Positions 49,766-50,391 of a stretch of 64,000 bases of DNA are shown piece by piece. The position numbers and the translations under genes are program-made. The DNA comes from Eledone cirrhosa (Eukaryota), in the NCBI GenBank assembly GCA_964016885.1, contig OZ024740.1, forward strand, positions 131,998,001-132,062,000. Direction: 5' to 3'. Each line of letters starts with the position of its first letter. The first letter of the stretch is position 1. Below the pieces are notes generated by a model. That model was not told the DNA's origin. It searched no databases and worked only from the letters and a program-made list of their open reading frames with translations.

Positions 49766-50391
49766 CCGGTTTGTCTGTGTGTTTACATACAGAATAGCTG
49801 GCCACTCACAGTAAAGTGACCAGTGAAAAAAACTTGGTACATCTACATATGTATACGTGTGTGTATTCATATACATACTAGTATTTCAGTATACATATAT
49901 GGATGTACATCTTTAACTTAATTGTTTAAGCGTCAGTCATACAAAAGTGAGTTACAAACGAAACGAAATTTAATTTCGTTTCGTTATTTGTTTTTATCGT
50001 CTCCGTTGAACCGGTACTTACTCACACTCTATGCAAATTAGTCTGCCCACTACTAATTATCATAGAAAAAGCATATAACGATATGTGCTTTTACGATTCT
50101 CTAGAGAGGCCGGAAGATAGGTAAATATTGCTGATGAGTTGTAACAACAACGAAACTAGTTCAATATTCCTTGTCTGGCTTTCTGGAGAATAGAGGAAAG
50201 GTGTTTCCTCAAAAACCAGTATGACTCTAAAAACCGGTTTGTCTGTGTGTTTACATACAGAATAGCTGGCCACTCACAGTAAAGTGACCAGTGAAAAAAA
50301 CTTGGTACATCTACATATGTATACGTGTGTGTATTCATATACATACTAGTATTTCAGTATACATATATGGATGTACATCTTTAACTTAATT
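49766..50391 (+). mobile_element. Retrozyme-like 468-bp unit with 158-bp terminal redundancy
   Basis: 49766-49923 repeats at 50234-50391. Contains a canonical HHR and no ORF. Confidence 0.8.
50124..50168 (+). ncRNA. Canonical type I hammerhead ribozyme (GUU site)
   Basis: aauauug-CUGAUGA-guugu-aaca-acaac-GAAA-CUAG-UU-caauauu. Stem I 7 bp, stem II 5 bp, palindromic stem III. Confidence 0.88.

Follow-up and report, generated by a model that had tools for sequence, protein, structure and literature searches.

Non-LTR retrozymes are known from metazoans such as coral, mussel and axolotl (PMC7229834; Li et al., 2026, 10.64898/2026.07.22.740005) as ORF-less tandem units with a GC content below 50% and one type I hammerhead per unit. 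They have no LTR/PBS/PPT layout, their predicted circular RNA is highly self-paired and keeps the ribozyme fold, and they co-occur with Penelope-like elements (PLEs). Dependence of retrozymes on PLEs has been proposed with this co-occurrence and pLTR trees as support (PMC7229834; PMC7761336; Li et al., 2026), and the mechanism of mobilisation was described as yet to be characterised (Li et al., 2026). The repeat family analysed here shares all of the features listed. Its unit of 468 nt is longer than the ~170–400 nt given in PMC7229834 and lies within the 51–972 bp of Li et al. (2026); as compared with the published families, it is a new one known here from DNA sequence alone. While the genomic return of animal retrozymes has been a hypothesis since 2020, in the present family, which is high in copy number and has recent copies that are nearly identical, the insertions themselves bear a PLE signature, and this would tie retrozymes to the Penelope machinery.

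The second group of described systems relevant to this locus is the EN+ PLEs. In assays with purified PLE protein, both strands of AT-rich DNA were nicked and extended, and reverse transcription started inside the RNA at two sites which bound the tail; a dimeric form of the protein is predicted. For insertion of the Poseidon element PAc, hammerhead cleavage is dispensable and the main substrate is unprocessed RNA (Frangieh 2024; PMC11167929). PLE insertions with an inverted 5′-truncated copy and a tail of 30–40 bp, often at one end only, have also been described (Craig 2021; PMC8557442). PAc and the Hydra clade have in common with the present family the two 3′ end points, the inverted 5′-truncated arm, the one-ended tail, the hammerhead and the AT-rich or (TA)n targets (PMC11167929; PMC8557442). 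In contrast to these EN+ PLEs, the present family has no ORF, its tail is about 70 nt where 30–40 nt have been published, its hammerhead is canonical with full helices where theirs is minimal, and its arms are arrays of many units. The non-autonomous MRC1 of Chlamys (PMC8557442) is likewise a PLE passenger with multicopy head-to-tail insertions, although the Chlamys elements generally resemble their autonomous partner at the 3′ end and mostly lack a hammerhead, whereas for the family described here no partner homology was found in the few PLE families compared. Newt satellite 2 and the axolotl HHR_Amex1 share with it a weak palindromic helix III favouring dimer cleavage, but its unit is longer, its cleavage site is GUU and its octamer promoter is only putative. 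With supplements and subscription journals outside the scope of the search, no published account was found of retrozyme insertions that have two inverted arms and are bounded by a tail, nor of haplotypes specific to single insertions.

The window, which is the whole 64,000-nt stretch of DNA analysed, contains a single-armed, 5′-truncated 1.34-mer at 49766..50391 (+). It consists of one complete repeat unit (49766..50233, +, 468 bp, 35% GC, ORF-less) followed by a second copy of 158 bp (50234..50391, +) identical to 49766–49923, the right end of which is the short 3′ end point of the family (site A, unit 158). The exact terminal redundancy with a period of 468 which the first-pass annotation had reported was reproduced, with no exact extension to the left. 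The absence of an ORF also held, the longest ATG frame over a trimer being 19 aa on the plus strand and 62 aa on the minus strand, as did the (TA)n neighbour. The TA target tract lies at 50392..50775 (no strand assigned); the (TA)n run itself begins at 50391, the last base of the copy, and reaches 50775.

The type I hammerhead previously noted at 50124..50168 (+), with the core CUGAUGA...GAAA, was verified in the MFE fold (z −2.9), in which the extended outer stem named earlier was also recovered at 50106–50114/50174–50182. Helix II occupies 50138–50151 and cleavage is predicted after 50161 (GUU); the triplet is GUC in some subfamilies. Helix III has 2 bp and is closed by the palindrome ACUAGU (50155–50160), and cleavage of dimers is therefore favoured; among metazoan hammerheads this 2-bp palindromic form is typical of those cleaving as dimers (Cervera 2014; PMC4209133). 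With the GUU site and this short helix, cleavage may be slow; in vitro cleavage was reported for one of nine Xenopus dimers (Li et al., 2026). The Rfam model Hammerhead_HH9 matched the window copy with an E-value of 5.8e-7 and 37.7 bits, which does not reach the gathering score of 52 bits, and Rfam gave no match in this copy at the gathering threshold. Rfam matches to miRNAs were dismissed as TA-repeat noise. Among 12 sequences hand-picked from the 25 distinct ones at mapped loci, six of the 14 hammerhead pairs were changed on both sides; as these sequences are related, this covariation is taken as support with no probability attached. The circular 468-nt monomer folded at −149.5 kcal/mol compared with −92 ± 5.8 for shuffles (z −9.9, with 0 of 60 shuffles equally stable), and the predicted fold retains the ribozyme helices. 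The window copy, truncated at its 5′ end at unit position 1 and with one arm ending at site A, carries just one hammerhead. It would consequently be unable to release a monomer by itself, and it falls outside the definition of an active retrozyme used by Li et al. (2026).

Several further features were located in the unit. A long TA-rich hairpin (49835..49908, +) lies directly upstream of site A and is also kept in a related family, referred to as family 2. At site A itself (49920..49930, +, unit 155–165), where a small hairpin is predicted, arms have their short 3′ end, while at site B (49994..49998, +, unit 229–233) arms at other genomic loci have their long 3′ end. The 69–74 nt separating the two sites form the tail (49924..49997, +), which includes a perfect hairpin at 49958–49984. 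DNA contigs from sequencing runs X1 and X9 switch to (TA)n past 49997, which is site B. The octamer ATGCAAAT (50031..50038, +) is a putative promoter element; it is kept in family 2 and missing in one expanding sub-lineage. In newt satellite 2 an octamer lies within an snRNA-type promoter. In the sub-lineage without it (L092_93, L125_126 and L127–L131), three A>G changes destroy the octamer while the RNA stem survives as G-U pairs, and this sub-lineage has grown to 69 units at 7 loci.

The window copy is one member of a young, high-copy, ORF-less hammerhead repeat family. An exact search with the 35-nt hammerhead core gave 5,132 matches in the 3-Gb genome and none for the control, and at least 181 matches were obtained with the unit (38 of 284 candidates), the full-length units among them being 98–100% identical. 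The regions mapped, 67 altogether, fell into three sets: 25 discovery regions representing the best matches, 26 regions taken in order of position on contig C1, out of its first 100 core matches, and independent of the discovery set, and 16 selected by haplotype. Identity to the window unit across the 67 regions ranged from 100% down to about 93%, the lowest values belonging to older subfamilies. Near-identical arrays reach 27 units and are purely head-to-tail with no internal unique region, from which the absence of an LTR/PBS/PPT layout was judged (no separate PBS/PPT motif search was made). Together with the tandem unit bearing one type I hammerhead, the lack of an ORF, the GC content below 50% and the strongly self-paired predicted circle, this has the makings of a non-LTR retrozyme, and on these sequence characters the repeat is classed as a new family of that group. 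Target-site duplications seen by eye were about 10 bp at L001 and longer at L042, and were masked by (TA)n at other loci. Among fixed variants, 21 A>G and 12 T>C changes were counted in a test for a footprint of A-to-I editing (P 0.076, with polarity uncertain). The unit was also present in sequencing runs labelled as 16 organisms and in one wastewater metagenome, at low depth in runs X4, X5, X6 and X18; for organism E the raw Hi-C reads gave 0 reads with the unit, although run X7 of the same organism carries it. These occurrences may represent carry-over, relatives or transfer, which are indistinguishable here. Contigs of X4 and X6 contain joints that go back 466/467 nt; the runs are of unknown kind and such joints are expected from tandem DNA, and they were set aside.

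The first-pass annotation had taken the start of the copy to be arbitrary and had suggested a check for circular permutation among copies. A comparison of end points in the mapped regions showed variation at the 5′ ends alone, and free circular permutation was rejected. Across 117 aligned arms or pieces the 5′ starts were spread over unit positions 1–467, and none lay within 5 nt of the cleavage site, where about 3 would be expected if starts were uniform. The 3′ ends were fixed at site A (unit 155–165) or site B (229–233), about 70 nt apart and nearly always abutting (TA)n. With 3′ sites fixed and 5′ ends variable, the 1.34-mer in the window is explained as an end at site A plus a 5′ truncation.

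Most insertions consist of two inverted arms placed head-to-head, one for each end site. The discovery set comprised 18 A+B loci, one B+B (L037), one chimera with family 2 (L002) and five single-armed loci including the window copy (A). The position-ordered set gave 18 A+B, 0 A+A, 0 B+B, three with one end elsewhere (L080, L086 and L102) and five single-armed, and the haplotype-selected set 10 A+B, one B+B (L128), three other or gapped and two single-armed. Where both ends of a two-armed locus lay at A or B, one of each was found in 46 of 48 cases (18/19, 18/18 and 10/11 for the three sets respectively). Under an independent 50:50 choice of site, the 18/18 of the position-ordered set would have P 3.8e-6 and 36/37 would have P 2.8e-10. 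At seven loci the second arm was a few bases read off the flank, and an anchor-based tally of the pairing was largely concordant. It should also be noted that at L086 and L115 two arms end at unit 413–415 next to sequence other than TA, which may mean that the arms were interrupted later or that a minor third end point exists.

A pair of fixed end points together with inverted arms is typical of PLEs, and copying by a Penelope-type enzyme is hence likely. From the arrangement of the insertions, we consider it very probable that the family was copied by a Penelope-like RT-endonuclease that primed on both target strands. By analogy with the published systems, the interval between A and B corresponds to the Penelope tail and would be the product of internal priming on both strands of the target. 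An ORF-bearing PLE family of the same genome, represented in the window by a 3′ fragment with a 67-nt tail at 54446..55128 (+), was used as comparator and has 4,108 exact 3′-end matches in the genome. Copies L110–L114 have, by eye, a C-terminal EN with a CxCX5C linker, CxxC and CxH motifs and insert in (TA)n, fitting the description of the Hydra clade; this Hydra-like assignment is from motifs and not from a tree, and the ORFs compared were 5′-truncated. An initial label of Neptune was dropped in favour of Hydra-like after the motif definitions were consulted. A Pfam search with copy L109 gave no match, the atlas neighbours of the comparator were RT/GIY-YIG clusters, and the copies scored were 66–89% identical in protein. 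In 13 of its 15 head-to-head pairs one short and one long end were found (two of the 13 duplicate each other), the remaining two being long plus long, and the Hydra-like PLE thereby obeys the same end rule as the retrozyme. The retrozyme tail of 69–74 nt is nearest to that of this family. TA targeting is common to several PLE clades in the genome. No sequence homology between the retrozyme unit and PLE 3′ ends was detected in the few PLE families compared, and no young intact partner was present among the PLE families examined.

The reading preferred here, to which a probability of roughly 0.65 is given, is that of a young non-autonomous hammerhead repeat copied by a PLE from two sites, probably off circular monomer RNA. 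Arrays would be transcribed as multimers, in which dimeric hammerheads would cleave after unit position 396, and ligation would yield circles of 468 nt. The PLE protein, as the dimer predicted in print, would then nick both strands of a TA tract, one strand being used for priming at site A and its complement for priming at site B. As both priming sites are internal to the RNA, a free RNA 3′ end would be unnecessary. How far each reverse transcriptase travelled on the circle would differ, which would account for arm lengths between 0.2 and 27 units, and the two cDNA 5′ ends would then be joined head-to-head. Whether one closed 468-nt RNA templates both arms of an insertion, with a Hydra-clade PLE dimer starting about 70 nt apart at one site per nicked strand, rolling up to tens of times and occasionally jumping circles, is a narrower proposition for which the chances appear even. 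If it were true, rolling-circle reverse transcription in an animal would be documented in this genome by many dated records, and internal initiation by PLEs would account for the retrotransposition of a circle that lacks a 3′ end.

Locus L129, and possibly L002, would be cases of a jump to another circle. At L129 (2265–7306) one arm is mixed, its nine 3′ units having the 266G haplotype and its two 5′ segments belonging to an older subfamily, a structure that suggests a jump of the reverse transcriptase between RNA molecules. At L002 an arm of the present family runs into a young family 2 array at the site-B hairpin common to both, by either template switch or recombination.

A rolling-circle origin had been suggested in the first-pass annotation from the more-than-unit length and arbitrary start, an argument that does not hold in that form; the circular template itself is favoured by other evidence, namely, in most cases, one haplotype per insertion across both arms, the absence of 5′ ends at the cleavage site, one indel in 334 crossings and arms of up to 27 units. 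Variants were fixed across all units and both arms at L040, L041, L043, L044, L045, L046, L048, L092, L095, L106 and others, examples being 77C/203G/433G in 23–24 units of L106_107 and 200A/241C/316C in 8 units of L095. For 250 units the mean distance was 0.0017 within insertions and 0.0134 between them, and the nearest neighbour of 233 units in multi-unit insertions lay in the same insertion only for 106, was tied for 111 and lay elsewhere for 16. The cleavage junction was crossed with no indel in 333 of the 334 cases, equal to background (45 of 12,618 windows). On these patterns a circular monomer RNA is the probable template.

The strongest alternative retains two-site priming by the PLE but takes as template an uncleaved linear read-through RNA of a homogeneous array, with the hammerhead incidental and arrays growing later at the DNA level. 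A homogeneous linear source array would leave the same footprint and may be missing from a single assembly, which counts against the circle, and PAc is known to work from unprocessed RNA (PMC11167929). Scar-free junctions and the lack of a 5′ peak at the cleavage site suit uncleaved RNA equally well. Variants with a period of two or three units limited to one arm (L031_32, L035, L038, L102 and L106) indicate that units were also added at the DNA level, or that templates were multimers, and are in keeping with such a linear template, as is the variant 365T, found in register in both arms of L043. Four haplotypes were searched genome-wide. The haplotype 266G/270G/271G belongs to a 7-locus sub-lineage whose longest arm, of 17.6 units, could be the source that templated the remaining loci, and 55A was found in two units at a second locus. 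The other two, 241C and 443T, were each private to one insertion, so that for two of the four no source array is present in the assembly. A step from monomer to multimer would still be required for every new array-wide haplotype. Of 68 testable cases of minority variants, 4 (two variants) matched in register between the arms and 64 did not, and the compensatory changes in the hammerhead stems also speak against an incidental ribozyme. The linear template is accordingly regarded as unlikely, though it deserves serious weight. For the in vitro assay of PLE activity that has been published, the family provides a defined RNA together with a target and two predicted start sites, with which circular and linear RNA could be compared. 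The pairing of ends and the per-insertion haplotypes are tests that need only sequence and are applicable to any other retrozyme family.

A different possibility is that the units are plain pLTRs, or solo remnants left by an autonomous PLE, as pLTRs of PLEs are published to bear type I hammerheads and tails and the retrozymes of Xenopus are related to pLTRs (Li et al., 2026). With five PLE queries, however, a PLE ORF joined in sense to the 5′ end of an arm was found at 0 of 67 loci, the closest same-strand matches being 1.39 and 1.49 kb off, and pure head-to-tail arrays of up to 27 copies, to which none of the tested PLE 3′ ends showed homology, are also at odds with it. This reading is largely refuted and is considered very improbable. 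The retrozyme-like, ORF-less and PLE-dependent nature put forward in the first-pass annotation is instead supported by the copy number, the two-site ends, the pairing of one of each and the lack of a joined PLE ORF. Equally remote is a DNA-level minisatellite or a SINE-like LINE passenger with ordinary twin priming. Twin priming does produce inverted 5′ segments, long arms display DNA-level duplication and intact RLE-type non-LTR ORFs lie within the window. However, the copies are dispersed and strand-polarised, are targeted to TA and have two fixed ends while their 5′ ends vary; a poly(A) tail is absent, a PLE family obeys the same rule, and site B recurs in every unit of a multimer, yet at 46 of 48 loci it is the other site that the second arm uses.

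The surroundings of the window copy are rich in other elements. An older PLE 3′ fragment (48597..49765, −) stands head-to-head against its 5′ end; as the best other copies of this fragment are 82–89% identical (40 of 3,863 candidates scored), it likely pre-dates the window insertion, and co-insertion of the two was rejected as unlikely on the same ground. Next to it lies a degenerate, two-armed copy of family 2 (48069..48588, no strand assigned) which ends at its own site B against TA. Family 2 is a colinear sister family with a period of 432 bp in the window and 472 bp in L078, a GUA site and the same palindromic helix III. A degenerate PLE 3′ fragment (50776..52135, −) sits on the same TA tract as the window copy. 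The TA tracts beside young insertions frequently reach great length, with about 385 bp in the window and more than 800 bp at L008, and they may conceivably be lengthened by the telomerase-related RT.

A young ORF-less palindromic element of about 200 bp with a MITE-like look was also observed in (TA)n (L132–L151, also L112 and L113, and L008 at 1143–1207). Its two arms, one short and one long, meet at a 5′ point that is nearly fixed; the tail measures about 80 nt, and the element follows the same end rule. At L008 its short arm is joined to a long arm of the retrozyme, by either co-insertion or later insertion with deletion.

Elsewhere in the window, an RLE-type non-LTR retrotransposon is present at 1898–18062 as three near-identical head-to-tail copies with split frames and a period of about 5.26 kb, followed at 18127–21549 (−) by an uninterrupted non-LTR RT frame of 1,140 aa with a C-terminal zinc-binding and endonuclease-like region. 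Fragments at 31693–33840 (−), judged by eye, presumably resemble a Helitron Rep-helicase. A PLE frame of 820 aa with RT and a weak GIY-YIG match was found at 35094–37556 (+), and a split PLE frame at 37355–39229 (+) has a CX2-5CxxC linker and is Neptune-like by motif.
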